DNA of 24,000 nucleotides from Anaerolineales bacterium (GTDB lineage Bacteria; Chloroflexota; Anaerolineae; Anaerolineales; Villigracilaceae). Position numbers and translations under genes: made by a program. Shown here piece by piece: positions 9,132 to 23,364 of the stretch; position 1 is the first letter of the stretch; every line of letters begins with the position of its first letter. Location of the stretch: assembly GCA_037478835.1 (NCBI GenBank), contig JBBFLV010000001.1, positions 286,526 to 310,525 of the forward strand. Direction: 5' to 3'. The notes beneath the pieces were generated by a model. The model saw only the letters and a list, made by a program, of their open reading frames with translations. It was not told where the DNA came from and searched no databases.

Positions 9132-9229
9132 GCCGTTGTAATTGACATGCTTCTATCCTTGTCTGGTGGTAGATTACGGCATATGGAGTCTCCCACCCTT
9201 TTTTACCTGGCTGGGTATAATTGAGCTTG

Positions 9230-9904
9230 ATGGACGTTTCCTCTCCCTTTTCTAACCTCTCTCCACAGGTGCGCGAGAAGTTGCGCCCTCTCGTGCGGAC
9301 CCGACAGTTCGATGCAGGGGAGGTGATCTTTTTACAAGATGAACCTACCCAGGCCATTTATATCGTTGGACAAGGCCGGGTAAAGATCACCCGTACAACG
9401 CCGGATGGGGAGGAGAGCATTCTCTGCATTCGCAAGGCCGGCGAATATTTTTGCCCGGTCCCTTTGCTGGATGGAAAAGGACAACTGGGCACTGCTTCTG
9501 CGATCACCCCGGTGACCATCCTTTGTATCGAGCGTAATGCTTTCCTGCAATTGTGTCAGGAGCATCCGGAACTGCTCGCCGTTGTTCAGGCAGATTGTTT
9601 GGGGGAAGTACGCTATCTTTTGCATCGTTTGGAAACGACCACTCATCGCACCTTGCGCGAACGCGTGGTCGTGGCTTTGTTGGATGCGCTCCATTCTTCT
9701 AAAGAGGTGGAAAACAATCATGGCGTGGTCCTGCTCACCCATCAGGAATTGGCCGGTCTGAGCGGAGTCTCAAGAGAAAACACTTCACGCGTGCTCAAAG
9801 AACTGGAACGGGAAGGCTTGTTGAAGCTACAGCGGGGGAAAATCCATATTCTGGATATTGCACGCTTGAGAAGAATGCTGGAGCCCACCTTCTATCGTCG
9901 GTGA
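9230..9904 (+). CDS. Crp/Fnr-family transcriptional regulator (cNMP-binding-like sensor domain + C-terminal HTH)
   Basis: The beta-roll region (EVIFLQDEPTQAIYIVGQGRVKI...) is followed by the HTH THQELAGLSGVSRENTSRVLKELEREGLL, which closely parallels the E. coli CRP helix GCSRETVGRILKMLEDQ. The start is uncertain: ATG 9230 is preferred over the TTG 9221 of the track ORF. Confidence 0.85.
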   Translation: MDVSSPFSNLSPQVREKLRPLVRTRQFDAGEVIFLQDEPTQAIYIVGQGRVKITRTTPDGEESILCIRKAGEYFCPVPLLDGKGQLGTASAITPVTILCIERNAFLQLCQEHPELLAVVQADCLGEVRYLLHRLETTTHRTLRERVVVALLDALHSSKEVENNHGVVLLTHQELAGLSGVSRENTSRVLKELEREGLLKLQRGKIHILDIARLRRMLEPTFYRR

Positions 9905-10108: not shown

Positions 10109-10552
10109 ATGGAACAGAGGAAAAAAGTGAATGAATTGAGTTTTGACGAGTGGCAAAAGACGATTCCGGACTACATCAGAAACGATCCGCTATGGGAATC
10201 TGGTTATTACCGGTTAGCGTTGTACCTCTACGATCTTGTCTGGCAAGATTGCGGTTTGCTGAAGCGAGATTTTCGCGGCCGAGAAATAGCCGGCCAGATC
10301 ATCCGCAGTGCAGGAGGCATTTGTGCCAATCTAGAAGAAGCGTACGGACGAGGAGTTGGCACAGCCGATTATGTGCGTGTGATGCGTATTGCTCTCGGCG
10401 AAGCCCGCGAGACACGCGGCTGGTATTTTCGTGCTCGCCGGATTCTCCCCCCGGAATTGCTCTCACATCGTGCTACTCTCACCGGAAAACTGATCGCTAT
10501 GCTTTCAAGCACCATCTCTTCCCACCGTAACAACCTGGGTAAATCGTCATAG
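10109..10552 (+). CDS. Four-helix-bundle protein (23S rRNA intervening-sequence protein family)
   Basis: Family-typical motifs QIIRSAGGICANLEEAYGRG ... YVRVMRIALGEARETRGWYF, compared with the family pattern QLxRSxxSIxxNIxEGxxR ... FLxIAxGSxxE. Lower GC than the surroundings. Alternative start GTG 10127, preceded by GAGGA. Confidence 0.7.
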   Translation: MEQRKKVNELSFDEWQKTIPDYIRNDPLWESGYYRLALYLYDLVWQDCGLLKRDFRGREIAGQIIRSAGGICANLEEAYGRGVGTADYVRVMRIALGEARETRGWYFRARRILPPELLSHRATLTGKLIAMLSSTISSHRNNLGKSS

Positions 10553-10658
10553 CCTACCCTCCTGCGCTCTCCCCTCCTACCCTCTAACCTCCTACCCTCT
10601 AATCTCCTACCCTCTAACCTCCTACCCTCTAATCTCCTACCCTCTAATCTCCTACCCA
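10553..10658. repeat. Tandem array of a 15-nt unit CTCCTACCCTCTAAY (family A)
   Basis: Five full units at 10574-10648, a partial unit at 10649-10658, and a degenerate lead-in from 10553. The last base alternates C/T. Confidence 0.9.
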
Positions 10659-10682: not shown

Positions 10683-11534
10683 ATGCATAGAATCCGTACC
10701 AAACTCAAACTTTATTGGCCCCTCATCAAATCCCTCCAAACCAGCCTCTTGCTGGCAACTGGGCTGGCCGGCTATCTCAGCGCGCACACGTCGCCTTCCG
10801 GGTTGATCCTGCTAGGCGTGGCCGTCAGCCTGTTCCTGGCCATCAGCGGCTCGACCGTGCTCAATATGTGGTATGACCGTGATATTGACGCGGTGATGAA
10901 CCGCACCCATCACCGTCCGTTGGTCACCGGGCGCATTTCGCCGACCGAGGCCTTGCGACTGGGGCTGATCCTCTCGATCCTGGGCGTGGGGTTGGCCGTG
11001 TGGATGTCGCCGCTCTACGGGCTGGTGGTCTTCGCCGGGCTGTTCTTTGACGTGGTCATCTACACCCTGTGGCTCAAGCGCCGCACCTGCTGGAGCATCG
11101 TCTGGGGCGGGATTGCGGGAGGGATGCCTATCCTCGCCGGACGGGTGATGGCCATCGGACAGATTGACCTGATCGGCATTCTGCTCAGCATGGCCGTGCT
11201 GTTCTGGATCCCGACCCACACCCTCACCTTTTCCATGCGCTTCTTCGCCGACTATCAAGCGGCGCGCGTCCCGACCTTCCCCTCCACCTACGGCTTTGAG
11301 ACCACCCGAGCCGTGATCGCCCTTTCGGCGATCATCGCCGCGGCCAGCATGGGGGTGGCCGGCGTGATGATCGGCGTTCAGGCCGGCTTCCTGCGTCTGA
11401 TGGCCGTGCTCTCGGCGGGATTGCTCCTCCTCTCCTTCGCCACCGTCTTCCGCCCCTCTGAGCGGATCAACTACAGTTTGTTCAAGTACGCCTCGCTGTA
11501 CATGTTGGCCTCCATGATTCTGCTTTCGATTTGA
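10683..11534 (+). CDS. ctaB: Protoheme IX farnesyltransferase (heme O synthase), UbiA prenyltransferase family
   Basis: 283-aa polytopic protein. Asp-rich motif NMWYDRDIDAVMNRTHHRPLVTGRIS, typical of CtaB/CyoE. No obvious SD before the ATG. Confidence 0.72.
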   Translation: MHRIRTKLKLYWPLIKSLQTSLLLATGLAGYLSAHTSPSGLILLGVAVSLFLAISGSTVLNMWYDRDIDAVMNRTHHRPLVTGRISPTEALRLGLILSILGVGLAVWMSPLYGLVVFAGLFFDVVIYTLWLKRRTCWSIVWGGIAGGMPILAGRVMAIGQIDLIGILLSMAVLFWIPTHTLTFSMRFFADYQAARVPTFPSTYGFETTRAVIALSAIIAAASMGVAGVMIGVQAGFLRLMAVLSAGLLLLSFATVFRPSERINYSLFKYASLYMLASMILLSI

Positions 11535-11647
11535 CCGTAGACGGTGGACCATAGACCGTTGACCGAGACGGTAGACCGTAGACCGTCCACCGTCTACCGT
11601 ACCCAGTCCGTCCACCGTCCACCGTCAACCGTCCATCGTCCATCATC
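11535..11647. repeat. Heptamer-period repeat block GACCGTN / CCACCGT (family B) with an internal 13-bp inverted repeat
   Basis: Successive 7-mers: gaccgta gacggtg gaccata gaccgtt ... cgtccac cgtccac cgtcaac cgtccat cgtccat. GTAGACGGTGGAC (11537-11549) is the reverse complement of GTCCACCGTCTAC (11585-11597). Confidence 0.85.
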
Positions 11648-12422: not shown

Positions 12423-12496
12423 GGCCGACTAGCTCAATTCGGTAGAGCAGCTGACTCTTAATCAGTTGGTTCGGGGTTCGAGTCCCCGGTCGGTCA
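12423..12496 (+). tRNA. tRNA-Lys (anticodon CUU)
   Basis: Hand-folded cloverleaf: acceptor GGCCGAC/GTCGGTC (one G-U), D arm GCTC/GAGC, anticodon stem GCTGA/TCAGT with loop CTCTTAA (anticodon CTT), variable loop TGGTT, T arm CGGGG-TTCGAGT-CCCCG, discriminator A. CCA is not encoded. Confidence 0.9.
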
Positions 12497-12502
12497 CTCC
12501 AC

Positions 12503-12605: not shown

Positions 12606-15455
12606 ATGGGCGATCGGAATACTTCAATCGGCGGCAATGTCGAAAACAGCATCATCAACACCGGTGATCACAACATCTTCAACCTGGGCACGCCTGCACT
12701 GACCCCGGAAGAACAGGAGCGCCTGACGCAGGCCTACCTGCAGGCCGTGGCCGCCGAGTGGGCTGTGTTGCGCCTCTACGAAGGGGAGGAAGAAGAGCGC
12801 GGCATCCCGCTGACCGATGTCTATGTGCTGCTGCAGGCCCGCCACACCCCGCCGCCCAAACCTTTGGAGCCTCCCCGCCCGGACGTGCCCAGATCCGAAG
12901 ATCGGCTAAAGCACACAGGCCCGCAACTTCCTTTCACGCCTCTCGAAGAAGAAAAAGCGCGCCAGGAGCATCAACCGCCTCCCCCGCCGCCCCCGCCGCC
13001 CGTCCCACTGAAGGACGCACTCAAGGATGCTACCCACCTGATGTTATTGGGTGAACCCGGCAGCGGCAAGAGCACCACGCTGCAATTCATCGGTCTGTGC
13101 TTTGCCAGGCGGGAAGAGAACTGGGCGCAGGAGAAACTCGGCCTGGAGGAAAGCCGCGTGCCGGTCTTGCTGCGCCTGCCCGTTTGTGCCGAGGAACTGG
13201 CTAAGGGCGGTGACGGGCTGCGCCGCGCCCTGATAGAAGAGATCGCCCGTTTGCTGCAGCAATCCGCTATCGCCGAACAACTTTACGAATCCTGGACGGC
13301 AAACGGCCGCTTGCTGGTGCTGCTCGACGGGCTGGATGAAGTGCATGAGCAACGAGAGAAGGTGCGCGAGCAAATCGAAGCCTTCGCCCGTGCCCCGGCC
13401 GGACGAAACGCCCGCCTGGTAGTGGCTTCCCGCATTGCCGGCTTCAGAACCTTGCAGGGGCTGAAGGAATACACCCTCCAATCGCTGGAAAAGGCGGACG
13501 ACATCCGGCATTACCTGGAAGGCTGGCTACGGGCGCTGGAAATCAAGGGCAACCCGAAAACCGAAGCGCAGATCCTGCTGGAGAAGATGCAGTCCGTCCC
13601 GGCCCTGCGCCGCGTGTTGGATAACCCCCTGCTGCTACGCCTGAGCGCCGAGGTCTATGCCCGCCAGGGGGAGATCGCCCGCAACCGCGCCGACCTTTAC
13701 GCCCGTTACGTGGCCGAAGCCTGGCGGCGCGCCGAACGCCGCGGCATTGATCGCAACCGGAAGAAGAGGGCTAGACGGGCACTGAAGGCCATCGCTTGGC
13801 ACCTGCATAGCGGCGGTGAGCGCGGCGAAGAGCGCCTGCTCCAACTGCTGCGGGAAAACGGCCTAGCCGCCGATGCTGAGACCGCGCGGGAGTTGCTGGC
13901 TCTGCTGCGCCAGAAAACCGGCCTGTTGGTGCGCCTGGAAGGGAATCAGTACGCCTTTGCCCATGCTACCATCGGCGAATATTTCGTCGCCTGCTACCTG
14001 AAGTGCGCCTGGAAAAAGAACCCGCGGCGCACGCGGGCCTTCCTACGCCCGCGTTGGCATCTGCCCGAATGGCGCGAGCCGATCATCTTGCTGGCCGGGA
14101 TGTTGGGGAAGAATCAACTCCAGGCGCTGCTTGCTGACCTCTGGCCGCCGCGGGATCGCTTCGAGCGCGCTGCTTACCGCAACCTGTTCCTGGCGGCCGA
14201 ACTGGCCGCCGAGGCTGGGCGTTGGGAAGACTTGGCGCCGACCTTGCGCCCTGCCCTGCTTTGCGCCCTACACGATGAAGACTGGTGGGTTCGTATGGTC
14301 GCAGTGTATACGCTGAGGAACACAGAGGATCGAGATAGATCGACAATCGATCATTTGAGTGTTGCGTTGCTAAAAGATAAGGAGTGGACAGTTCGTGCTG
14401 CAGCGGCTGAGACATTAGGCGAAATTGGCCAACATGCCGGTAGAGATGAGTTTGCCGGAATTGTGAAATCTTTGATTGATGCTTTGAATGACCAGGATAT
14501 ACATGTCCAAGAGAAAGCGACTGATGCTCTGGCAAAAATCGGCAAAGTTTTAAGTGAGCTAAATGAGCTAAATGAGCTAATAAAAGTATTCCAAAATTAC
14601 AACCAAAATGACGAGTTATATTCGCATATCGTCCGGATTCTGAGCAGAATCGGTAAGCCCGCAATAGATTTTCTTGTTCGAGCTTTGGAAAAAGCAGAAG
14701 GGTATAAGTACGTAGAGATTATGTTTACTCTGCAAGATATACAAAGTAGAATTCAAGGTGAAAATCAGGCAGAATCATCGGATTGGTATCAGAAGATTTG
14801 GGCCTACATAAAGAACAATCATTTGCTAGAAATGCAACTCGGTGATCCACGTGATCCACAATTTCTACAAGCCCAAATCCGAGATTTGCAAGATAGAGAT
14901 AAGAATAAGCGTCAGCGGGCAGCTTGGGTATTGGCAGAGATCGGTGACCCACAGGCCATACCTGCCCTGCTCTATGCTTTGCGGGATAAGGAAGAAGAGG
15001 TGCGCAGGAGGGTGTCTTGGGCTTTGCAAAGGATTTTCCGAAATCTACGTTTATCCCAAGATTCGGACATAAATCGCAAAATTATGAGCCTTCTCCGTTT
15101 ATCTCATACACTTTGGCGTCTAAGGCGAGCCGGAGGAGTCTCCCTCCTCTCCTCTGCGTTGACCTACCGCGACGCCCTGGAGGTCGCCCTCTCCACGTGG
15201 AAGGACCCGCTCCAACCGCCGCCGCAGGAAGTGCGCCGGGCGCAGCTCCGGCAGGCGGTGCAAGGGGTAGGCCTGGCTCTGCTGGCCGGGTTGGCCGGGG
15301 TGCTCGCCATTCTGCTCGGCGGAGTCGGGAAGGCGCTGGGCGATTTGATCGCCCCGCTTTGGGCCGCGCGGCCGTTTCTCCTGCTTCTGGCCGCAGTGAT
15401 CCTGCTCGGCGCGTTGGGCTGGGCATTGCAGCGCCGGCTTGAGAGCAGGAAATAG
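12606..15455 (+). CDS. STAND NTPase: NACHT domain + HEAT (PBS-lyase-type) repeats + C-terminal double TM
   Basis: Walker A LLGEPGSGKST (13050-13076 for GEPGSGKST). Walker B LLVLLDGLDEV (13311-13343). HEAT repeats include KDKEWTVRAAAAETLGEIG and DRDKNKRQRAAWVLAEIGDPQAIPALLYALRDKEEEVRRRVSWALQRI. Terminal hydrophobic helices GVGLALLAGLAGVLAILLGGVG and PFLLLLAAVILLGALGWAL. Confidence 0.85.
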   Translation: MGDRNTSIGGNVENSIINTGDHNIFNLGTPALTPEEQERLTQAYLQAVAAEWAVLRLYEGEEEERGIPLTDVYVLLQARHTPPPKPLEPPRPDVPRSEDRLKHTGPQLPFTPLEEEKARQEHQPPPPPPPPPVPLKDALKDATHLMLLGEPGSGKSTTLQFIGLCFARREENWAQEKLGLEESRVPVLLRLPVCAEELAKGGDGLRRALIEEIARLLQQSAIAEQLYESWTANGRLLVLLDGLDEVHEQREKVREQIEAFARAPAGRNARLVVASRIAGFRTLQGLKEYTLQSLEKADDIRHYLEGWLRALEIKGNPKTEAQILLEKMQSVPALRRVLDNPLLLRLSAEVYARQGEIARNRADLYARYVAEAWRRAERRGIDRNRKKRARRALKAIAWHLHSGGERGEERLLQLLRENGLAADAETARELLALLRQKTGLLVRLEGNQYAFAHATIGEYFVACYLKCAWKKNPRRTRAFLRPRWHLPEWREPIILLAGMLGKNQLQALLADLWPPRDRFERAAYRNLFLAAELAAEAGRWEDLAPTLRPALLCALHDEDWWVRMVAVYTLRNTEDRDRSTIDHLSVALLKDKEWTVRAAAAETLGEIGQHAGRDEFAGIVKSLIDALNDQDIHVQEKATDALAKIGKVLSELNELNELIKVFQNYNQNDELYSHIVRILSRIGKPAIDFLVRALEKAEGYKYVEIMFTLQDIQSRIQGENQAESSDWYQKIWAYIKNNHLLEMQLGDPRDPQFLQAQIRDLQDRDKNKRQRAAWVLAEIGDPQAIPALLYALRDKEEEVRRRVSWALQRIFRNLRLSQDSDINRKIMSLLRLSHTLWRLRRAGGVSLLSSALTYRDALEVALSTWKDPLQPPPQEVRRAQLRQAVQGVGLALLAGLAGVLAILLGGVGKALGDLIAPLWAARPFLLLLAAVILLGALGWALQRRLESRK

Positions 15456-15460
15456 CCAGG

Positions 15461-15507
15461 CCGGAATCGGACACGGATGGGCACGGATGACACGGATTCG
15501 CACGGAT
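15461..15507. repeat. CACGGAT-type repeat block (family C)
   Basis: CACGGAT at 15472, 15482, 15491 and 15501, spaced 9-10 nt. AATCGGACACGGATGGGCACGGA resembles AATGGGACACGGATGGACGCGGA at 6531-6553. Confidence 0.8.
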
Positions 15508-15531
15508 CTTTGAGCATCGCTTATCTCAAAG
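15508..15531 (+). other. Hairpin downstream of the NACHT gene (no U tract)
   Basis: CTTTGAG (15508-15514) pairs with CTCAAAG (15525-15531) across a 10-nt loop. It is followed by GGGGG, so it is not a classical intrinsic terminator. Confidence 0.3.
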
Positions 15532-15596
15532 GGGGATGTCGCCACGGCCACAAAAAATCCCACTGCCCGATTCATTGCTTTCAGAATCCAAGCTCT

Positions 15597-15659
15597 CTAA
15601 CCCCTACCCCCTAACCTCTAACCCCTAACCTCTAACCCCTAACCTCTAATCCTCCCCCT
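15597..15659. repeat. Heptamer tandem array CTAACCC/CTAACCT (family A variant)
   Basis: ctaaccc ctacccc ctaacct ctaaccc ctaacct ctaaccc ctaacct ctaatcc tccccct, with strict 7-nt phase. Confidence 0.9.
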
Positions 15660-15660
15660 C

Positions 15661-15690
15661 CACGGTCTACGGTCCACCGTCCACCGTCAA
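15661..15690. repeat. Family B copy (ACGGTCT ACGGTCC ACCGTCC ACCGTCA)
   Basis: The 19-mer GTCCACCGTCCACCGTCAA at 15672-15690 is identical to 11610-11628. Confidence 0.85.
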
Positions 15691-15714
15691 ATCAAGAAAT
15701 TTGTCATCCTGCCA

Positions 15715-15730
15715 TGTGATGAGTATCACG
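15715..15730 (+). promoter_or_regulatory. CRP/FNR-family-type palindromic operator TGTGA-N6-TCACg
   Basis: TGTGAtgagtaTCACg matches 9 of 10 positions of the CRP consensus TGTGA-N6-TCACA. Its centre lies about 42 nt upstream of the start site predicted from the -10 at 15753-15758. Confidence 0.55.
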
Positions 15731-15749
15731 ATGGGCAGGGCATGCCGCA

Positions 15750-15758
15750 TGCTACAAT
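15750..15758 (+). promoter_or_regulatory. Extended -10 promoter (TGcTACAAT) of the CODH/ACS operon
   Basis: aTGcTACAAT lies 77 nt upstream of ATG 15835. There is no recognisable -35; the palindrome occupies that position. Confidence 0.55.
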
Positions 15759-15834
15759 GTATTAAGCAGGATTTTATTTTAGAGGTTTGAGGTCACCATG
15801 TACAACACTTCATGATTCCCGTCAGGAGGTGGCT

Positions 15835-16215
15835 ATGGAAAAGGTCTCGTTTGTAGCGCCGGCGTTGTACGGTGATCACCATGTCACCGAGGTGCGGCGG
15901 ATGCTTCTTTCTCTGGAGGGGGTTACGGAAGTCTATGCCAGCAGTGCCTTTCACGTCATTGAAATCACCTACGATCCGCAAACGATCAATGCAGAACAAC
16001 TGAAGGCGACCCTGGAGCGCAGCGGCTATCTGGATGAATTGCCCGTGCCGGTCGAAGCACCGCCGCAAGGGGGACCCGGCGATGGTCACACCTTTTTCCG
16101 TCACACCGCGGTGATGGAAAACGTACGTCAAGTTACGTTTCTGCGCCCGGCACCCTATCAGGGGCGGCCTCTCTGGCCGTGCCCCGGCTTTGGGGTGTTG
16201 AAGGCGGAGGACTAG
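15835..16215 (+). CDS. Small HMA-fold-like protein lacking the CxxC metal site (hypothetical; possible metallochaperone)
   Basis: AGGAGG at 15824-15829 lies 5 nt before ATG 15835. The N-terminal 70 aa follow the HMA pattern (V.F..P.LYGDHHVTEVRRMLLSLEGVTEV...VIEITYDPQTINAEQLKATLERSGY), with LYGDHH where MxCxxC normally sits. Confidence 0.6.
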   Translation: MEKVSFVAPALYGDHHVTEVRRMLLSLEGVTEVYASSAFHVIEITYDPQTINAEQLKATLERSGYLDELPVPVEAPPQGGPGDGHTFFRHTAVMENVRQVTFLRPAPYQGRPLWPCPGFGVLKAED

Positions 16216-16249: not shown

Positions 16250-18268
16250 ATGCCTCGCAAACGCGAACTCCACGAATATTCCACCGATCCGGCCGCCCAA
16301 GAGATGTTGCGCCGGGCGGAAGAGATGGGTATTTCAACCGCTTTTACGCGCGCCGATGCCATGGTGCCTTGTAACATCGGCGGGGCCGGGATGTGTTGTA
16401 AGCAGTGCGGCATGGGACCCTGCCGCCTGACCAAAGAAGGGGATGTGGGCGTCTGCGGCGCCACGATCGACACCATCCAGGCACGCAACCTGACCCGTGC
16501 CATCGCCGCCGGCGCCGCGGCACACTCCGATCACGGGCGCGATATGGCCTTCCTGCTCAAGGCCACGGCCAAAGGCGAGGCCGAAGGCTACATGATCCGC
16601 GATATCGCCAAGCTGCGCATCGTGGCCTCGAAATACGGCATTCCGATCGAAAAACGCGCTCCGGAAGAGATCGCCTCCGACCTGGCCGATCTTTACATCG
16701 CCCAATTCGGCCAGCAGACGGGCGAGATCGTCCTGCCCACGCGAGCCCCGAAGAAACGACAGGAACTGTGGCGTAAGCTGGGCGTCTGGCCGCGGGGGTT
16801 GGACCGCGAAGTGGTCGAATGCCTGCACCGCACGCACATCGGCGACGATCAGGACCCGGAGCATATCCTGCACCATGCCGTGCGCACTGCCCTGGCCGAC
16901 GGTTGGGGCGGCTCGATGATCGCCACCGATGTTTCCGATATCCTCTTCGGCACCCCGGCGCCGATCTATGGACAAGCGAACCTGGGCGTGATCAAAGAGG
17001 ACATGGTCAACGTCATCGTCCATGGGCACGAACCCAGCCTGAGCGAAATGCTGGTCGCCGCCTCGCAGGACCCGGAGATCATCGCCTATGCCCGTGCGGC
17101 CGGCGCGAACGGCGTGAACTTGGCCGGCATCTGCTGCACGGCCAACGAAATCCTCATGCGTCAGGGCATTCCGGCGGCCGGGAATTTCCTCCATCAGGAG
17201 CTGGCCATCCTGACCGGCGCCGTGGAGGCCATGGTGGTGGATGTGCAATGCATTATGCAGGCTTTGGTAGGGCTGGCGCAGAACTTCCACACCCTGATCA
17301 TCACCACCTCGCCCAAGGTCAAGATTAAGGGAGCGACGCACATCGAGTTCGATGAGCACCGCGCCTATTCGATTGCCAAACAAATTCTGCGCACGGCAAT
17401 TGACAATTTCAGGAACCGTGAACGTGCCCGCGTGCACATTCCACAGGTGCGCGAGGATCTGATCCCCGGCTTTTCGCACGAATATATCAACTACATGCTC
17501 GGCGGCTCCTACCGCGGCTCGTTCCGTCCGCTCAACGATGCCATCATGGCCGGGCGCATTCGCGGTGTGGTCGCCGTGATCGGTTGCAACAACCCGCGCA
17601 CCAGTCAGGACTACCTGCACCATTACATCGTGCGCGAACTGCTCAAGCAGGATGTGCTCGTCGTCCAGACCGGTTGCGGCGCCATCGCTTCGGCCAAGCT
17701 TGGGTTGATGCTCGGCGAGGCCGGTTTGGAACAGGTCGGCCCCGGCCTGCGCGAGGTGTGCGAAGCGATCGGCATTCCGCCGGTGCTCCACATGGGTTCC
17801 TGCGTGGATAACACGCGCATTCTGACCGTGCTCACGCAAATGGTCGAAGAGGGTGGCCTGGGCGATGATATTGACCAGATCCCCGCCGTGGGCATGGCAC
17901 CGGAATGGATGAGCGAAAAGGCCCTGGCGATCGGCACCTATTGTGTGGCTTCGGGAGCCTACGTCATCTTCAGCGGCGCTTCGCCGATCAGCGGCATGCC
18001 CGATCGCGTCTCGGATAGCGACAAGGTGCTGCGTTATATCTCCGAAGGCTGGGAGAAACTCTACGGCGGCAAGATGGAATTCATCCCGGAGCCGCGGGAA
18101 ATCCTGGAGCGCACGCTGGCCCACATTGACAAGAAGCGCGCCGCGCTGGGCTTGCCGGCTTACGATCCCAGCCGTTGGGGCAAGAGCGGCGATCTGCTGA
18201 TCCATCAAATCGAAGCCCTACCGTTAGAGCAACGCCGTCAGGCGATCTACGGCCTGGCCGCCGATTGA
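16250..18268 (+). CDS. acsA: Ni-Fe-S carbon monoxide dehydrogenase catalytic subunit
   Basis: 672 aa. Cluster-ligand motifs VPCNIGGAGMCCKQCGMGPCRL, VHGHEPS, AGICCTANE, VIGCNNP and HMGSCVDN. Confidence 0.95.
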   Translation: MPRKRELHEYSTDPAAQEMLRRAEEMGISTAFTRADAMVPCNIGGAGMCCKQCGMGPCRLTKEGDVGVCGATIDTIQARNLTRAIAAGAAAHSDHGRDMAFLLKATAKGEAEGYMIRDIAKLRIVASKYGIPIEKRAPEEIASDLADLYIAQFGQQTGEIVLPTRAPKKRQELWRKLGVWPRGLDREVVECLHRTHIGDDQDPEHILHHAVRTALADGWGGSMIATDVSDILFGTPAPIYGQANLGVIKEDMVNVIVHGHEPSLSEMLVAASQDPEIIAYARAAGANGVNLAGICCTANEILMRQGIPAAGNFLHQELAILTGAVEAMVVDVQCIMQALVGLAQNFHTLIITTSPKVKIKGATHIEFDEHRAYSIAKQILRTAIDNFRNRERARVHIPQVREDLIPGFSHEYINYMLGGSYRGSFRPLNDAIMAGRIRGVVAVIGCNNPRTSQDYLHHYIVRELLKQDVLVVQTGCGAIASAKLGLMLGEAGLEQVGPGLREVCEAIGIPPVLHMGSCVDNTRILTVLTQMVEEGGLGDDIDQIPAVGMAPEWMSEKALAIGTYCVASGAYVIFSGASPISGMPDRVSDSDKVLRYISEGWEKLYGGKMEFIPEPREILERTLAHIDKKRAALGLPAYDPSRWGKSGDLLIHQIEALPLEQRRQAIYGLAAD

Positions 18269-18281
18269 GTAAGGAGGGAGT

Positions 18282-20564
18282 ATGTCACGGTATATCGCTA
18301 CCCGTGCCATCCGTGGCGCCCATGCTCTGGTCACAGAGGCCGAGCTGATGCTCAAAAAGGCCCTCGCCGAAAAGGGGCCGGAGACGCCGGTCGCCTTCCC
18401 GAACACCGCCTACTACCTGCCGGTGATCTACGGGATGACCGGCATCGCCGTGGAAAAATTGGGCGATCTGCGTCCGGTGTTGGAACATGCCCGTCGTCTG
18501 CTCCACCCCCTGCCCTCTGAGCGCTATTGGACGCCCTACCTGGGAGAAACGCTTGATTCGGGCATGGCCACCCTGCTGGCCGCCGAGGCCATCGAGGCCA
18601 TTCGCTTCGTTTACGGCTTGCAACCCGAACCCATGCCCGGCTTCAGGTTGGCCGGCGGCACGTCCTTTACTTCCCCGGATTCCGGCCTGGAGCAGGCCGA
18701 TGGTCACCTGAACGGGCCGATTGACGATATTCAGCTGCGCTCTTGGGGCATTCAGCTGGTGGATGGGCGCATGCCCGGCTTTGCCGCCATCGTCGGCTGT
18801 GCCAAATCGAATGAAGTGGCGGTCAAAATCGTGCGTGAGCTGCAACGGCGCAACATCCTGTGCTTCTTGAGCGGAAATGTCAACGGTCGTAGCATCATCC
18901 ATCAGCTGATCGAGGAGGGCGTGGAGCTGGGCTACGATACGTACACCGTGCCCTTCGGCACCGATACCATCAGCGCCATCTACGCCCTGGGCTTTGCCGT
19001 GCGTTCGGCGCTGACCTTCGGCGGGCTGAAAGGGGGACAGGCGCGCGAAATTTTGCTCTATAACAAGGAGCGCGTCTTCGCCTTTGTCCTGGCGCTGGGC
19101 GAAGTGGATGACCTGAAGTACGCCGCGGCCGCCGGAGCGATTAACTTCGGCTTCCCGGTCATTGCCGATACGGTCATCCCGCAGATTTTGCCCACCGGCG
19201 TCACCACCTATGAGCATGTCGTCTCCATGCCCTTTGACCAGATCGAGGGCAAGGACGATCTGGAGCGTGCCGAGCGTCTGGTGCAGAAATGCATTGAGGT
19301 GCGCGGCGTCAAGGTCAAGGTCTCGCAGGTGGACATCCCCGTCCCGTATGGTTCGGCCTTCGAGGGCGAGGTAGTGCGCAAGGCGGATTTGCGCGTCGAA
19401 TTCGGCGGGAAGCACAGTCGCTGTTTTGAATATCTCTATATGGCCCCGTTGGATGAAGTGGTGGACGGCCGCATTCAGGTGATCGGCAAGACGTTCGAGG
19501 ATGTTCCCGTCCAGGGCTCGATGGATATGGGCATCGTGGTCAAGGTGGCCGGGCGCAATATGCAGCAAGATTTTGAGCCGGTGCTCGAACGTCAGATTCA
19601 CTATTTCATCAACGGCGCCTCCGGCATTCAGCACATCGGTCAGCGCGATATTGCCTGGATCCGCATCTCGAACAATGCCGCGGCGAAAGGCTTCTCGCTG
19701 GAGCACTTCGGCAAGATCCTCCATGCCCGTTTCCATGAGGATTTCGGCGCCATTGTGGATAAGGTGGAGGTGATGATCATCACCGACCCGGCGCTTCATG
19801 CCGAATGGCTGGAGAAGGCGCGCCAAGCCTACGATCAGCGCAACCGCCGCTTGGCCGATCTGACCGATGAGAAAGTGGAAGAGTTTTACTCGTGCACTCT
19901 ATGCCAATCCTTCGCGCCGAATCACGTCTGCATCGTCTCGCCGGAGCGCTTAGGACTGTGCGGTGCTTATAACTGGCTGGACTGCAAAGCTTCCTACAAC
20001 ATCAACCCCACCGGGCCGAACCAGCCGATCAAACTGGGCAAGTTGCTCGACCCGGTCAAGGGCTATTGGGAAGGGACCAACCAATATGCCAAGATCGGCT
20101 CTCACGGGGCGGTTGAGCAAGTGGCGATGTATTCGATCATGGAAAATCCGATGACCGCCTGTGGCTGCTTTGAGTGCATCGTCATGCTCATCCCGGAGGC
20201 CAACGGTGTGATGGTGGTCAGCCGTGAAGATTCCAGCATGACCCCGGCCGGCATGACCTTTTCCACCCTGGCCGGCATTGCCGGTGGTGGCCTGCAGACC
20301 CCCGGCGTGATGGGCGTCGGCAAATACTATCTCCTCAGCCCTAAGTTCATCAAGGCCGATGGCGGTTTCAAACGCGTCGTCTGGATGTCGAGCATCCTCA
20401 AAGAGACCATGGCCGAGGAATTGAAGCAGGTGGCCATCCGCGAGGGCGATCCAGACCTGATCGAAAAGATCGCCGATGAGCGCTACGTGACCACCGTGGA
20501 GGAACTGCTGGCCTGGCTGGAGGAGCACAACCATCCGGCGCTGACCATGCCGCCGATCTTTTAG
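18282..20564 (+). CDS. acsB: Acetyl-CoA synthase (A-cluster subunit)
   Basis: AGGAGGGAG precedes ATG 18282. 760 aa. Motifs FPNTAYYLPVIYG, CTLCQSFAPNHVCIVSPERLGLCG and the Cys-Gly-Cys motif TACGCFECIV. Confidence 0.95.
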   Translation: MSRYIATRAIRGAHALVTEAELMLKKALAEKGPETPVAFPNTAYYLPVIYGMTGIAVEKLGDLRPVLEHARRLLHPLPSERYWTPYLGETLDSGMATLLAAEAIEAIRFVYGLQPEPMPGFRLAGGTSFTSPDSGLEQADGHLNGPIDDIQLRSWGIQLVDGRMPGFAAIVGCAKSNEVAVKIVRELQRRNILCFLSGNVNGRSIIHQLIEEGVELGYDTYTVPFGTDTISAIYALGFAVRSALTFGGLKGGQAREILLYNKERVFAFVLALGEVDDLKYAAAAGAINFGFPVIADTVIPQILPTGVTTYEHVVSMPFDQIEGKDDLERAERLVQKCIEVRGVKVKVSQVDIPVPYGSAFEGEVVRKADLRVEFGGKHSRCFEYLYMAPLDEVVDGRIQVIGKTFEDVPVQGSMDMGIVVKVAGRNMQQDFEPVLERQIHYFINGASGIQHIGQRDIAWIRISNNAAAKGFSLEHFGKILHARFHEDFGAIVDKVEVMIITDPALHAEWLEKARQAYDQRNRRLADLTDEKVEEFYSCTLCQSFAPNHVCIVSPERLGLCGAYNWLDCKASYNINPTGPNQPIKLGKLLDPVKGYWEGTNQYAKIGSHGAVEQVAMYSIMENPMTACGCFECIVMLIPEANGVMVVSREDSSMTPAGMTFSTLAGIAGGGLQTPGVMGVGKYYLLSPKFIKADGGFKRVVWMSSILKETMAEELKQVAIREGDPDLIEKIADERYVTTVEELLAWLEEHNHPALTMPPIF

Positions 20565-20574
20565 CGGAGGTGCC

Positions 20575-21069
20575 ATGAAACCCCTCCTCGTCCGCGATCT
20601 GATGACGGTCGGTGTGCCGACCTGCAAGCGGGATACGCCGGTGCGCCAGGTGGCACGTCTCCTGGTGGAGAAGGACTTGGAGGCTGTGTGTGTATTGGAT
20701 GAGGAGGGGAACGGCATCGGTGTGGTCGGTTTGGAAGAGATCATCGCCGCTTACGGTCGGGAGGGCCTGGAGGACCTGCCTGCCGAAGCCATCATGCGCG
20801 AAGGCATGCCCACGCTGAAGCCGGATATGCCCCTCACCCTGGCCGCTCAATTCATGCGCGATCAGCGCACCCGCATTGCCTATATGACCCACAATGCCGC
20901 CGGCATCATCTATCCGGCGGCCTATATCACCTACCGTCACTTTTTGCGCTATTTGGCGGCGGTAAGCCCGGAAGAACTGCGCGATCTGGGCATTGCTGCC
21001 AGCCGTAAATCTCCGTTGGAAGCGTTTGCAGAGCGCCGTGAACGCAAGCGCAAAGAATTGCTCGGTTGA
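20575..21069 (+). CDS. CBS-domain pair protein
   Basis: 164 aa. Two CBS-like modules (VRDLMTVGVPTCKRDTPVRQVARLLVEKDLEAVCVLDEEGNGIGVVGLEEII and AIMREGMPTLKPDMPLTLAAQFMRDQRTRIAYM). 10 nt after acsB and 17 nt before acsD. Confidence 0.8.
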   Translation: MKPLLVRDLMTVGVPTCKRDTPVRQVARLLVEKDLEAVCVLDEEGNGIGVVGLEEIIAAYGREGLEDLPAEAIMREGMPTLKPDMPLTLAAQFMRDQRTRIAYMTHNAAGIIYPAAYITYRHFLRYLAAVSPEELRDLGIAASRKSPLEAFAERRERKRKELLG

Positions 21070-21086
21070 TCTCATCGGAGTTGCCT

Positions 21087-22031
21087 ATGCCCATCGAAAT
21101 CCCGAAAGACAAATGGCCTGGTAGTGTGCGAACGGTCACGCTGGGCGCCACCCCTGCCGAAGGAGGCACGCGCACCCGCACCGTGACCGTGGGTGGTCAT
21201 ACCACCCTGCCGTTCCTGAGCTTCGAGGCGCCGATTGCCTCTCCGCCTGTTCTGGCGATCGAGATCCGCTCTCGCCCGCCGGAGGATTGGTCGCCCTTGC
21301 TCTTGCAGGTCTGGGGGGATGTGGTGAACGATCTCGCCGCCTGGGCCAAAGCCGCCGAAGCGGCCGGCGCCGATCTGTTGGTGTTGGCGCTGAGCGTTGA
21401 AGATTCGCCGCAAAGCGCCGTCGAAAGCGTCAAGAAGGTGTTGGCGGCCAGCGGGTTGCCGCTCATCGTCTGGGGGCCCGGCCAGGCCGAAAAAGATAAC
21501 GAACTGCTCGTGCCCGTGGCCGAGGCGACCAAAGGCGAGCGCCTGGTCCTGGGCATTTGCGAGGACAAGAACTACCGCACGATCGTGGCGGCGGCGATGG
21601 CGAACGGTCACCTGGTTCAGGCGCGCACGCCGATGGATGTCAACCTCTCCAAGCAGTTGAATATCCTGATCAGCGATATGGGCATGCCCAAGGATCGCAT
21701 TCTGATGGACCCGACCACCGGCGCGCTCGGATACGGCATCGAATACGGTTATTCTGTGATGGAGCGCTTGCGCCTGGCCGCGCTGCAGGGTGATGCCATG
21801 ACGCAATCCCCGATCATTGTCACCCCTGGCTATGAGGCCTGGAAGACGAAAGAGGCCAAAGTCGGAGAAGGGGTGCCCTCGGCCTGGGGCGAATGGAGCG
21901 AGCGTGCCATCCAGTGGGAGGTGCTCACTGCTCTGCCGCTGATCGAGGCCGGCGCCGATATCCTCGTCTTGCGTCATCCGGAATCGCTACGGCGGCTACG
22001 CCTTGCGATTCAGGAACTGTGTGCGGCATAA
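21087..22031 (+). CDS. acsD: Corrinoid iron-sulfur protein small (delta) subunit
   Basis: GGAG lies 6 nt before ATG 21087. N-terminus MPIEIPKDKWPGSVRTVTLGATPAEGGTRTRTVTVGGHTTLPF, typical of AcsD/CdhD TIM-barrel subunits. Alternative TTG start at 21066 overlaps the CBS stop. Confidence 0.85.
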   Translation: MPIEIPKDKWPGSVRTVTLGATPAEGGTRTRTVTVGGHTTLPFLSFEAPIASPPVLAIEIRSRPPEDWSPLLLQVWGDVVNDLAAWAKAAEAAGADLLVLALSVEDSPQSAVESVKKVLAASGLPLIVWGPGQAEKDNELLVPVAEATKGERLVLGICEDKNYRTIVAAAMANGHLVQARTPMDVNLSKQLNILISDMGMPKDRILMDPTTGALGYGIEYGYSVMERLRLAALQGDAMTQSPIIVTPGYEAWKTKEAKVGEGVPSAWGEWSERAIQWEVLTALPLIEAGADILVLRHPESLRRLRLAIQELCAA

Positions 22032-22041
22032 GGAGGCACTC

Positions 22042-23364
22042 ATGGCTCTCACCGGCATCCAGATCTATAAACTTTTGCCCCAGACGAACTGCAAAGAATG
22101 CGGCTTTCCCACCTGCCTGGCCTTTGCGATGAAATTGGCCGCCAAACAGGTGGAATTGAGCGCCTGCCCCTACGTTAGCGAAGAGGCCAAGCGTCAGCTG
22201 GCCGAATCAGCGGCTCCGCCCATCCGTCTGGTGAGCCTGCGCTCGGCGAGCCAGGAAGTCAAGGCCGGCAACGAAACCTGCCTCTTCCGCCACGAAAAGA
22301 CGTTCTACAACCGTCCCGGCATCTTTTTGCGCCTGCGCCCGAACGAGGCAGGCTGGAAAGAAACCCTGCAACAGGCCGCCGGCTGGAAGGTCAGCTATGT
22401 GGGGGTGGAGCTGGGGTTGGATGGCTTCGCCGTGGAGATCGAAGACGAAGCAAGCGCCGCGGCCGTCCGTGAGTTGCGGGCTCTTGTGGCGCATCCCCTC
22501 ATCCTGATCGGCAAAGACCCTGCGGCATTGCGTGCCGCCCTGGAAGCCTTGCGCGGCGAGACGCCTCTGCTGTATGCCGCCGAGGCCTCGAACTGGGAAG
22601 CGATGGCCGATCTGGCCAAAGAATACCGGGCGGCCCTCACCGTGCGCGCCGCCGACCTGGACTCCCTCGCCGACCTCACGCAGAAGGTGCAGGCGCGCGG
22701 CGTGGAGGACCTCGTGCTTGATCTGGGGACCTCGCAGCTGGGGCCCTGGCTGACGCGTTCGACCGTGGTGCGGCGCATGGCGCTCAAGAACTTCCGTCCG
22801 TTCGGCTATCCGGTGCTGGCCTGGCGCACAGAGCCACCTTCGGAGCTGGAGGCGCCTTTCATCGCCCAAGCGATCGCCAAATATGCCGGGTTCATCATCG
22901 TCAATACCTTTGCTCCCGAAATGCTCTATCCGCTCCTGGTCTTGCGGCAGAATATCTACACCGATCCGCAGAAACCGATCCAGGTCCAACCCGGCCTCTA
23001 CGAGATCAACGCTCCGAAGCCGGATTCGCCAGTGCTGGTGACGACGAACTTCAGCATCACCTATTTCTCGGTGGCGAACGAAGTGGAGGGCTCTGGGCTG
23101 CCGGCCTGGCTGGTGGTGACCGATGCGGAGGGCATGTCGGTGCTCACGGCCTGGGCAGCCGGCAAATTCGATGCCGAGCGCATTGCCAAAGCCATCCGCA
23201 CCTTTGAAGTGGATGGCAAAGTGACCCGCAAGCGCCTGGTCATCCCCGGCCATGTGGCCGTGCTCTCCGGCGAACTGGAAGAAGAATTGCCCGATTGGGA
23301 GATCCGCGTCGGGCCGCGCGAGGCGGTGGATATTCCGGCCTTCATCCGTCAGGCACTGAATTGA
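22042..23364 (+). CDS. acsC: Corrinoid iron-sulfur protein large (gamma) subunit
   Basis: AGGAGG at 22031-22036 lies 5 nt before ATG 22042. N-terminal 4Fe-4S motif LPQTNCKECGFPTCLAFAMKLAAKQVELSACP. 440 aa. Confidence 0.9.
   Translation: MALTGIQIYKLLPQTNCKECGFPTCLAFAMKLAAKQVELSACPYVSEEAKRQLAESAAPPIRLVSLRSASQEVKAGNETCLFRHEKTFYNRPGIFLRLRPNEAGWKETLQQAAGWKVSYVGVELGLDGFAVEIEDEASAAAVRELRALVAHPLILIGKDPAALRAALEALRGETPLLYAAEASNWEAMADLAKEYRAALTVRAADLDSLADLTQKVQARGVEDLVLDLGTSQLGPWLTRSTVVRRMALKNFRPFGYPVLAWRTEPPSELEAPFIAQAIAKYAGFIIVNTFAPEMLYPLLVLRQNIYTDPQKPIQVQPGLYEINAPKPDSPVLVTTNFSITYFSVANEVEGSGLPAWLVVTDAEGMSVLTAWAAGKFDAERIAKAIRTFEVDGKVTRKRLVIPGHVAVLSGELEEELPDWEIRVGPREAVDIPAFIRQALN

Follow-up and report, generated by a model that had tools for sequence, protein, structure and literature searches.

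The CODH/ACS operon of an Anaerolineales bacterium is preceded, in the window (the whole 24,000-nt stretch of DNA analysed here), by a CRP-type palindrome, and a regulator of the Crp/Fnr family is encoded several kilobases upstream. This raises the question of whether the palindrome is a regulatory site at all and, if it is, which protein reads it. The initial annotation took it for a class II activator site and named the nearby regulator as the candidate. Here, both proposals are weighed against the orthologous promoters of related genomes and against other proteins which could recognize the same core.

Genes of the CODH/ACS locus

The operon is coded on the plus strand. Its first gene, hma (15835-16215), encodes a 126-aa HMA/CopZ-like protein with weak matches to Pfam HMA and NCBIfam CopZ, and the product is probably a metallochaperone. 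It is followed on the same strand by acsA, which encodes the CODH (16250-18268), acsB (18282-20564), a CBS-domain gene (20575-21069), acsD (21066-22031), and acsC (about 22003-23364), all recognized by Pfam; the operon thus codes for the carbonyl branch of the Wood-Ljungdahl pathway. The CBS-domain gene between acsB and acsD codes for 164 aa and is kept in about half of the related loci; judged by its domain, this protein could be a small-ligand sensor. The comparison set consisted of the 80 best related loci, all labelled Anaerolineae/Chloroflexota except one binned as Alphaproteobacteria. The gene order of the operon is conserved, and in the relatives RACo and methyltransferase genes come next. 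The hma gene was found 5' of acsA in at least 64 related loci, and in 76 of 78 when tblastn was used. The closest relative is the MAG "Anaerolineales bacterium H68_716" (L001), with a CODH 97% identical to that of the window.

Upstream of the operon, the window codes for the Crp/Fnr-family regulator (9221-9904, plus strand, probable start at 9230) with cNMP_binding and HTH_Crp_2 domains, a 23S-IVP-like gene (10109-10552), UbiA (10683-11534), tRNA-Lys (12423-12497), and a NACHT+HEAT gene (12606-15455). The last of these encodes a NACHT and HEAT-repeat protein (STAND NTPase) of 949 aa and stands between tRNA-Lys and the CODH/ACS promoter. It is missing from L001 and thus represents a recent insertion or deletion. 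Between this gene and hma there is an intergenic region of 379 nt (15456-15834) rich in short tandem repeats. Short tandem low-complexity repeats were found in intergenic positions at 10554-10657, 11531-11642, 15469-15507, and 15597-15649, with repeat units of 15/30 nt (CTCCTACCCTCTAAC), the 7-mers GACCGTA and CTAACCC, and CACGGATG.

No transcription-factor gene is conserved beside the operon, and the upstream neighbours in the related loci are CooC, DUF3786, and CAP+LysM proteins. A full-length Crp/Fnr gene within 10 kb of the operon is absent in 79 of 81 loci and was found in the window and L001 only. A 155-aa protein with a cNMP-binding domain and no HTH is encoded in L037 (8307-8774), L042 (8165-8635), L062 (8406-8876), and L079 (8407-8877). 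Its gene is located directly 5' of hma and 3' of the hdrCBA-mvh hydrogenase operon.

Promoter of the operon in the window

The proximal 16-bp palindrome TGTGATGAGTATCACG is located at 15715-15730, has the core GTGA-N6-TCAC with no strand assigned, and is a candidate regulator site. It agrees with TGTGA-N6-TCACA at nine of ten positions, and the coordinates and letters given for it initially are exact. Downstream on the plus strand follows the extended -10 element TGcTACAAT (15750-15758), with the TG at 15750-15751 and the hexamer at 15753-15758. The palindrome centre (15722.5) lies 30.5 nt 5' of the start of the hexamer, and a gap of 22 nt separates TGTGATGAGTATCACG from it. If transcription starts 6-7 nt past the hexamer, the centre would be placed at about -41.5/-42.5 relative to this predicted start. 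The claim that the -10 element stands without a -35 was borne out, as no canonical -35/-10 pair is present on the plus strand of the intergenic region 15456-15834, and none is conserved in the orthologs. GTGACA was considered as a -35 and dismissed, lying 31 nt from the -10. Likewise, an extended hairpin CCTGCC..GGCAGG around the palindrome is present in the window only and is unconserved.

A distal degenerate copy of the palindrome, CAAGAAATTTGTCATC, was recognized at 15693-15708, also without strand assignment. Its conserved core AAATTTGTCAT covers 15697-15707, and its centre is 22 bp upstream of that of the proximal site.

The predicted 5' UTR is about 70 nt long (15759-15834, plus strand) and includes a Shine-Dalgarno sequence, AGGAGGTG (15824-15831); GGTCACC (15791-15797) is a possible anti-SD. 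The SD-pairing stretch CATCATCC is conserved in the relatives, with covariation almost nil. In a sub-clade, the 5' UTR keeps a GGAAG...CTTCC hairpin together with CATCATCC, which is able to pair with the GGAGGTG SD. In an Rfam search over the window, one tRNA was the only match; the 5' UTR gave neither a known leader nor a known riboswitch.

The palindrome is the single match to TGTGA-N6-TCACA with at most one mismatch in the 24-kb window, where 0.34 matches are expected and 28 of 100 shuffles contain at least one. Judged within the window alone, it is not significant.

Conservation of the site across Anaerolineae promoters

The consensus TGTGA-N6-TCACA was searched for in the region -200..-80 from the hma ATG of 76 orthologous loci; because this consensus came from the initial annotation, the comparison is not circular. 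At most one mismatch was found in 15 of the 76 loci (shuffle mean 0.29, maximum 2). With up to two mismatches allowed, the site is present in 36 loci, when 4.3 are expected from the shuffles (maximum 9), and so the absence of the palindrome from orthologous CODH/ACS promoters, which the initial annotation had named as an outcome refuting its proposal, was not what the relatives revealed. In the control region -520..-400, only 2 of 73 loci had a match with at most one mismatch and 4 of 73 with at most two.

By anchoring on the extended -10 TGnTAnnnT, 42 distinct promoters were collected. Their shared architecture is, from 5' to 3', a distal element (G)ACATTT(A/G)TC(A), the proximal site (T)GTGA(C/T)A(A/T)Tnn(T/G)CACA(A), a spacer of 22-23 nt, and TGCTAGAAT, which is near-invariant in the orthologs. 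The distance from the first A of the distal element to the start of the proximal site is a constant 18 nt. From the site start to the hexamer there are 38 nt in 24 promoters, 39 nt in 10, 43-44 nt in six, and 36 and 46 nt in one each, so that the offset of 38-39 nt to TGCTAGAAT is held in 34 of 42. The information content, computed on 26 distinct promoters with the 38-nt offset, amounts to 1.21 bits per column for the site, 0.37 for the spacer, 1.69 for the extended -10, and 0.77 for the distal element. Mean pairwise identity is 63% in the site and drops to 35% in the 22-nt spacer. Orthologs differ widely in the distance from the -10 to the ATG. Spacing that is held while the spacer itself drifts is a phylogenetic footprint, as left by a site for protein binding that must keep its place relative to the polymerase. 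No -35-like conservation was detected 17-18 nt upstream of the -10 among the 26 aligned promoters.

Invariant columns of the proximal site are T2, A4, and A13; at position 5, 41 of 42 sites have C or T and one has A. The best-conserved columns (T2, G3, A4, C12, A13, and C14) show dyad symmetry around the middle of the 16-mer. The sites of the window and L001 are of the TGTGAT-N4-ATCAC type, and most other species have GTGAC. When the distal and proximal motifs are compared in a 22-bp register (G.GACATTTrTCa vs. GTGACAwTnnTCAC), about 10 of 13 informative positions agree, and the distal element is read here as a putative weaker second site on the same helix face.

The class II distance proposed at the outset would be consistent with a centre 30.5 nt from the hexamer, which is nearly fixed in the 34 promoters mentioned, but six of the 42 have 5-6 nt more. 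These six, with a spacing of 43-44 nt (L017, L019, L026, L041, L044, and L063), are half a helical turn off and possibly represent one clade with a 5-6-nt insertion in the spacer. The site centre GAyAATACTCAyA is common to all six.

The conservation makes it very probable that the palindrome is a real regulatory site, at which a putative binding protein would sit. As the leading explanation, it would be the main operator of a conserved hma-acsABDC promoter module in Anaerolineae. That it is a chance match without a regulatory role is extremely improbable. Taken singly, one site with at most one mismatch in the window would be unremarkable, given its frequency in the shuffles, but position and sequence are kept in dozens of diverged orthologous promoters with unconserved flanks, by which chance is effectively refuted.

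The Crp/Fnr regulator at 9221-9904

The regulator was assigned to the Crp/Fnr family on the basis of an N-terminal cNMP-binding-like beta-roll and a C-terminal HTH_Crp_2, both of which were found (PF00027, 1.4e-22; PF13545, 4.4e-16; PF00325, 3.8e-06). The Arg-Glu...Arg triad reported for its recognition helix is coded as had been described, with R-E at 9773-9778 and the second R at 9788-9790, and this R-E-x3-R helix is kept by all homologs of the regulator. The closest solved relative is T. thermophilus CRP (PDB 4EV0), which is of the same fold family (E = 1e-19) and likewise has the SRE..SR helix. In the phosphate-binding cassette, the regulator has QLGTASA vs. ERSASA of T. thermophilus CRP, and the phosphate-binding Arg is lost. 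As a cAMP-binding CRP, for which this Arg (R82 in E. coli) was looked for and found absent, the regulator scores 56 bits vs. the 266-bit CRP equivalog cut-off. As an FNR-type sensor, it lacks the N-terminal Cys and scores 19 bits vs. the 228-bit Fnr cut-off; none of the NCBIfam equivalog cut-offs is reached. Because the phosphate-binding Arg is missing, the effector of this regulator would not be cAMP.

In an alignment of the sub-clade (22 sequences, 39-88% identity), Cys66 and Cys75 are invariant in GEYFCPVPLLDG, and Cys123 in the C-helix is near-invariant. From these residues, the sub-clade looks like an uncharacterised thiol-, metal-, or haem-type sensor. A bolder proposal is that it is a new thiol/metal/Fe-S/haem sensor (of CO, redox state, or nickel), taken on in this lineage to activate the acetyl-CoA synthase operon in class II manner. 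It draws on the lost cAMP Arg and on Cys66, Cys75, and Cys123 lining the ligand pocket, and it is considered improbable. If true, the Wood-Ljungdahl pathway would be under a CooA-like logic, with another chemistry of sensing.

Orthologs of the regulator were found in L001 (88% identical) and L088 (52%), where a homologous gene for 205/213 aa (65% identity) comes next. Two TGTGA-N6-TCACA boxes (for example TGTGATCAAGATCACA) stand in front of this gene at a distance of 32 bp from each other. The tandem boxes are located at 2839-2926 in L001 and at 9048-9095 in L088, between the regulator gene and that of the 205/213-aa membrane protein. Being found beside the regulator gene in two lineages, they indicate that the sub-clade probably reads TGTGAT..ATCACA boxes. 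In L001, the 205/213-aa gene is followed by genes for a 508-aa unknown protein and an FGE-sulfatase-like protein. The 3.3-kb target cluster of L001 is missing from the window, where the 23S-IVP gene (10109-10552) stands in its place. No matching autoregulatory box was found near the regulator's own promoter.

The sub-clade is sparse. At E<=1e-20, 31 clusters (90% identity) were obtained, 22 of them at least 44% identical, and an exhaustive search of 1.84 billion representatives gave 17 relatives of the regulator at E<=1e-30. At the same threshold hma has 489 clusters, and the regulator sub-clade is about 20 times rarer than the operon. As the site is conserved in at least 40 species, its general binder cannot come from such a narrowly distributed sub-clade. 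A metagenome scan for orthologs of the regulator returned five distant matches only. The contexts of the homologs vary, including an AsnC/POR neighbourhood, a RuBisCO operon, and a dehalogenase-like cluster with five Crp paralogs.

Related sites at other genes

From the promoter sites, a symmetrised matrix was derived, and 1.4 Mb were scanned with it. The scan gave 153 matches of at least 11 bits vs. 49-68 in shuffles, and 91 of the matches are intergenic. In front of the hdrCBA-mvh [NiFe]-hydrogenase operons of L037 and L062, a site lies 22-25 nt upstream of the -10; these hdr-mvh sites are strong, for example CGTGACATTTGTCACA. The site was also found 5' of RACo (L022) and of MTHFR (L041 and L063), and three copies lie just 3' of the regulator ortholog in L001. 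The presence of the motif at hdr-mvh, RACo, and MTHFR genes suggests that the element marks a small C1/H2 regulon.

Formate/nitrite-transporter genes adjoining the operon have a box in front of them in L027 (8140), L028 (1562), L029 (5114), and L051 (1050). Their promoters possess a -35 TGACAA, which a spacer of 17 nt (TGACAA-N17-TATACT) separates from the extended -10 TGGTATACT. The box TTGTGATATTATTCACAA is in a repressor position, its start being about 9-14 nt past the -10, and the transporter boxes, TTGTGAT-N4-ATTCACAA, match 13 of the 14 specified positions of a Rex operator. As the transporter promoters have a -35 of their own, these organisms do use this element, and the CODH/ACS promoter is without one exactly where the site is. 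The transporter operators are thus good candidates for Rex, and the CODH/ACS sites seem to form a CRP-like class of their own. By parallel with nirC of S. aureus, this suggests that formate transport in Anaerolineae may be NADH-responsive.

Candidate proteins for the CODH/ACS site

Class II activation by a Crp/Fnr-type dimer is the leading reading of the site and is preferred tentatively, with a confidence that falls somewhat short of even. A Crp/Fnr-family dimer with an Arg-Glu...Arg helix would sit on the proximal site in place of the -35 and recruit RNA polymerase in class II fashion, like NtcA, FNR, and CooA, and the distal site at about -64 would contribute through cooperativity or in class I fashion. 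Should the local regulator be the binder, the effector would be something other than cAMP. This reading is favoured by the recurrence of the site in orthologous promoters far above chance, by a spacing fixed to +/- 1 nt (34 of 42) while the spacer drifts, by the position of the site at the place of a -35 that these organisms otherwise use, and by the helper site two helical turns upstream. The hdr-mvh promoters share the geometry of 22-25 nt, most CODH/ACS sites are poor Rex boxes with C or T at position 5 as in the CRP-type TGTGAT, and R-E-x3-R is present in all homologs of the local regulator. The geometry also matches that of canonical NtcA promoters, in which the Crp-family site is centred near -41.5 (PMC3898017). 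Class II promoters (E. coli CRP galP1 and FNR; NtcA with GTA-N8-TAC, PMC3898017) and the CODH/ACS promoter both have a 16-bp GT..AC dyad in place of the -35, with about 22 nt from its end to the -10. They are alike also in their reliance on the -10 region, and the second upstream site recalls class III arrangements. The differences are that the -10 of the CODH/ACS promoter is a near-consensus extended -10 instead of a weak one, that one Anaerolineae clade has the site shifted by 5-6 nt, and that the local regulator is without both the cAMP phosphate-binding Arg and the N-terminal Cys cluster of FNR. A Crp-family protein controlling a CODH operon is known in CooA, which acts at the coo promoters of R. 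rubrum, but that system is of the CooS/hydrogenase type and the operon described here of the acetyl-CoA synthase type.

Several observations do not fit class II activation well. With the TG and a hexamer of 5/6, the extended -10 comes close to perfect and suits repression. Near-consensus extended -10 promoters can work without a -35 or an activator, so activator dependence is probably not obligatory here, and the step from a missing -35 to activator dependence made in the initial annotation does not follow for a TGnTAnAAT with a 5/6 hexamer. A strict class II geometry should not tolerate the 5/6 nt of additional spacing in 6 of 42 promoters. At the transporters the core motif is in the repressor position, where a common binder would repress. 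No Crp/Fnr candidate is conserved in linkage with the operon, 79 of 81 loci being without one. In addition, dyad symmetry does not call for the degree of conservation observed in the left half and centre, GTGACAwT, and TGTCA-N10-TGACA offers an alternative.

This asymmetry, with GTGACAwT stronger than its mirror positions, could mean that a different protein reads a composite element, either T(G/A)TCA-N10-TGACA across the distal and proximal elements or GACAwTT repeats spaced by 22 bp, the likeness to TGTGA-N6-TCACA then being partial. In keeping with such a protein, the distal element retains the inner bases and not the outer GT/AC, and TGTCA-N10-TGACA is perfect in some loci, for example L005. 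It is nevertheless held to be quite unlikely, as the best-conserved columns are dyad-symmetric about the centre of the 16-mer, TGTGA-N6-TCACA is perfect in many loci, and the distal TGTCA reads TATCC or TATCA in most.

As to which Crp/Fnr protein would be the activator, the regulator at 9221-9904 is a doubtful candidate for binding the palindrome even in this organism, and its chance forms a part of that given to class II activation, not an addition to it. The part of the initial proposal that stands is the R-E-x3-R helix and the probable reading of TGTGA boxes by its sub-clade: the tandem boxes near the L001 and L088 orthologs indicate a TGTGAT...ATCACA specificity, the sites of the window and L001 are of the corresponding TGTGAT-N4-ATCAC type, and the gene lies on the same strand 5.9 kb upstream of hma (5.8 kb from the site). 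Against it, the regulator is near the operon in 2 of 81 loci only, which together with its sparse sub-clade (22 clusters at least 44% identical vs. 489 for hma) makes it too rare for a general binder. The DNA between it and the operon is variable, with the NACHT/HEAT gene in the window only and the 3.3-kb cluster in L001 only. Its homologs stand in differing contexts, its own promoter is without a matching box, and the conserved adjacent target is another gene cluster, absent from the window.

The main competitor is Rex, an NADH/NAD+-sensing repressor, which was left out of the initial annotation and whose operator has the same TGTGA-N6-TCACA core. Bound to the proximal and distal boxes, Rex would cover the -35 region of a promoter which, with its extended -10, is otherwise constitutive; it would leave when NADH rises, and the Wood-Ljungdahl pathway, Hdr-Mvh hydrogenase, and formate export would be derepressed together as electron sinks. 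This is possible, if on balance rather unlikely. Rex is a widely conserved protein and would explain a widely conserved site. Besides the common core, the transporter boxes of L027, L028, L029, and L051 match at 13 of 14 positions and are in the repressor position, the near-consensus extended -10 needs no activator, and a repressor could tolerate the class with 5/6 nt of additional spacing. Rex recognises TGTGAn6TCACA, refined to TTGTGAAW4TTCACAA, and among its highest-affinity targets in S. aureus is the formate/nitrite transporter gene nirC (PMC2883068). Rex boxes were also predicted upstream of ACS/CODH in Eubacterium limosum (PMC11725836). Thus, the formate/nitrite transporter, hydrogenase, and ACS/CODH targets of Rex regulons, known or predicted (PMC2883068, PMC11725836), parallel the Anaerolineae set.

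On the other side, only 7-12 of the 14 specified positions agree in the CODH/ACS sites, with a mode of 10. The window site has 10 of 14 and 2 of 4 W, when up to 3 mismatches were allowed for a Rex box in PMC2883068. The outer TT/AA and inner A/T which define Rex boxes are missing from these sites, position 5 being A in 1 of 42. In the same genome, the transporter box fits Rex much better than the CODH/ACS site (13 vs. 8 positions in L029 and 13 vs. 7 in L051). Rex operators of Gram-positives and acetogens overlap the promoter with the same core, but the tight spacing to the -10 at CODH/ACS is unexpected for simple occlusion. A phmmer search of the 81 loci with B. subtilis Rex revealed no rex gene, which says little, as the loci are only about 0.5% of each genome. 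The best 120 matches listed in a database search with Rex were all from Bacillus or Streptococcus. Between the two, class II activation by a Crp/Fnr-type protein is kept as the leading reading of the CODH/ACS site.

Significance of the promoter module

Anaerolineae are abundant, mostly uncultured fermenters and syntrophs of digesters, sediments, and groundwater. Full-text searches for literature on the control of the Wood-Ljungdahl pathway or CODH/ACS in Chloroflexota/Anaerolineae found nothing. The kind of element, a Crp/Fnr- or Rex-type dyad at a promoter, is familiar; the instance, the tandem architecture, and the regulon are new. Conserved across dozens of species, the predicted module combines an operator at a fixed position with a helper site and an extended -10, and hydrogenase and further C1 genes have it as well. 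It provides a candidate C1/H2 regulon which can be searched for genome-wide, and it could serve as a DNA bait for finding the sensor protein. The module may also help to predict the expression of CODH/ACS from metagenomes.
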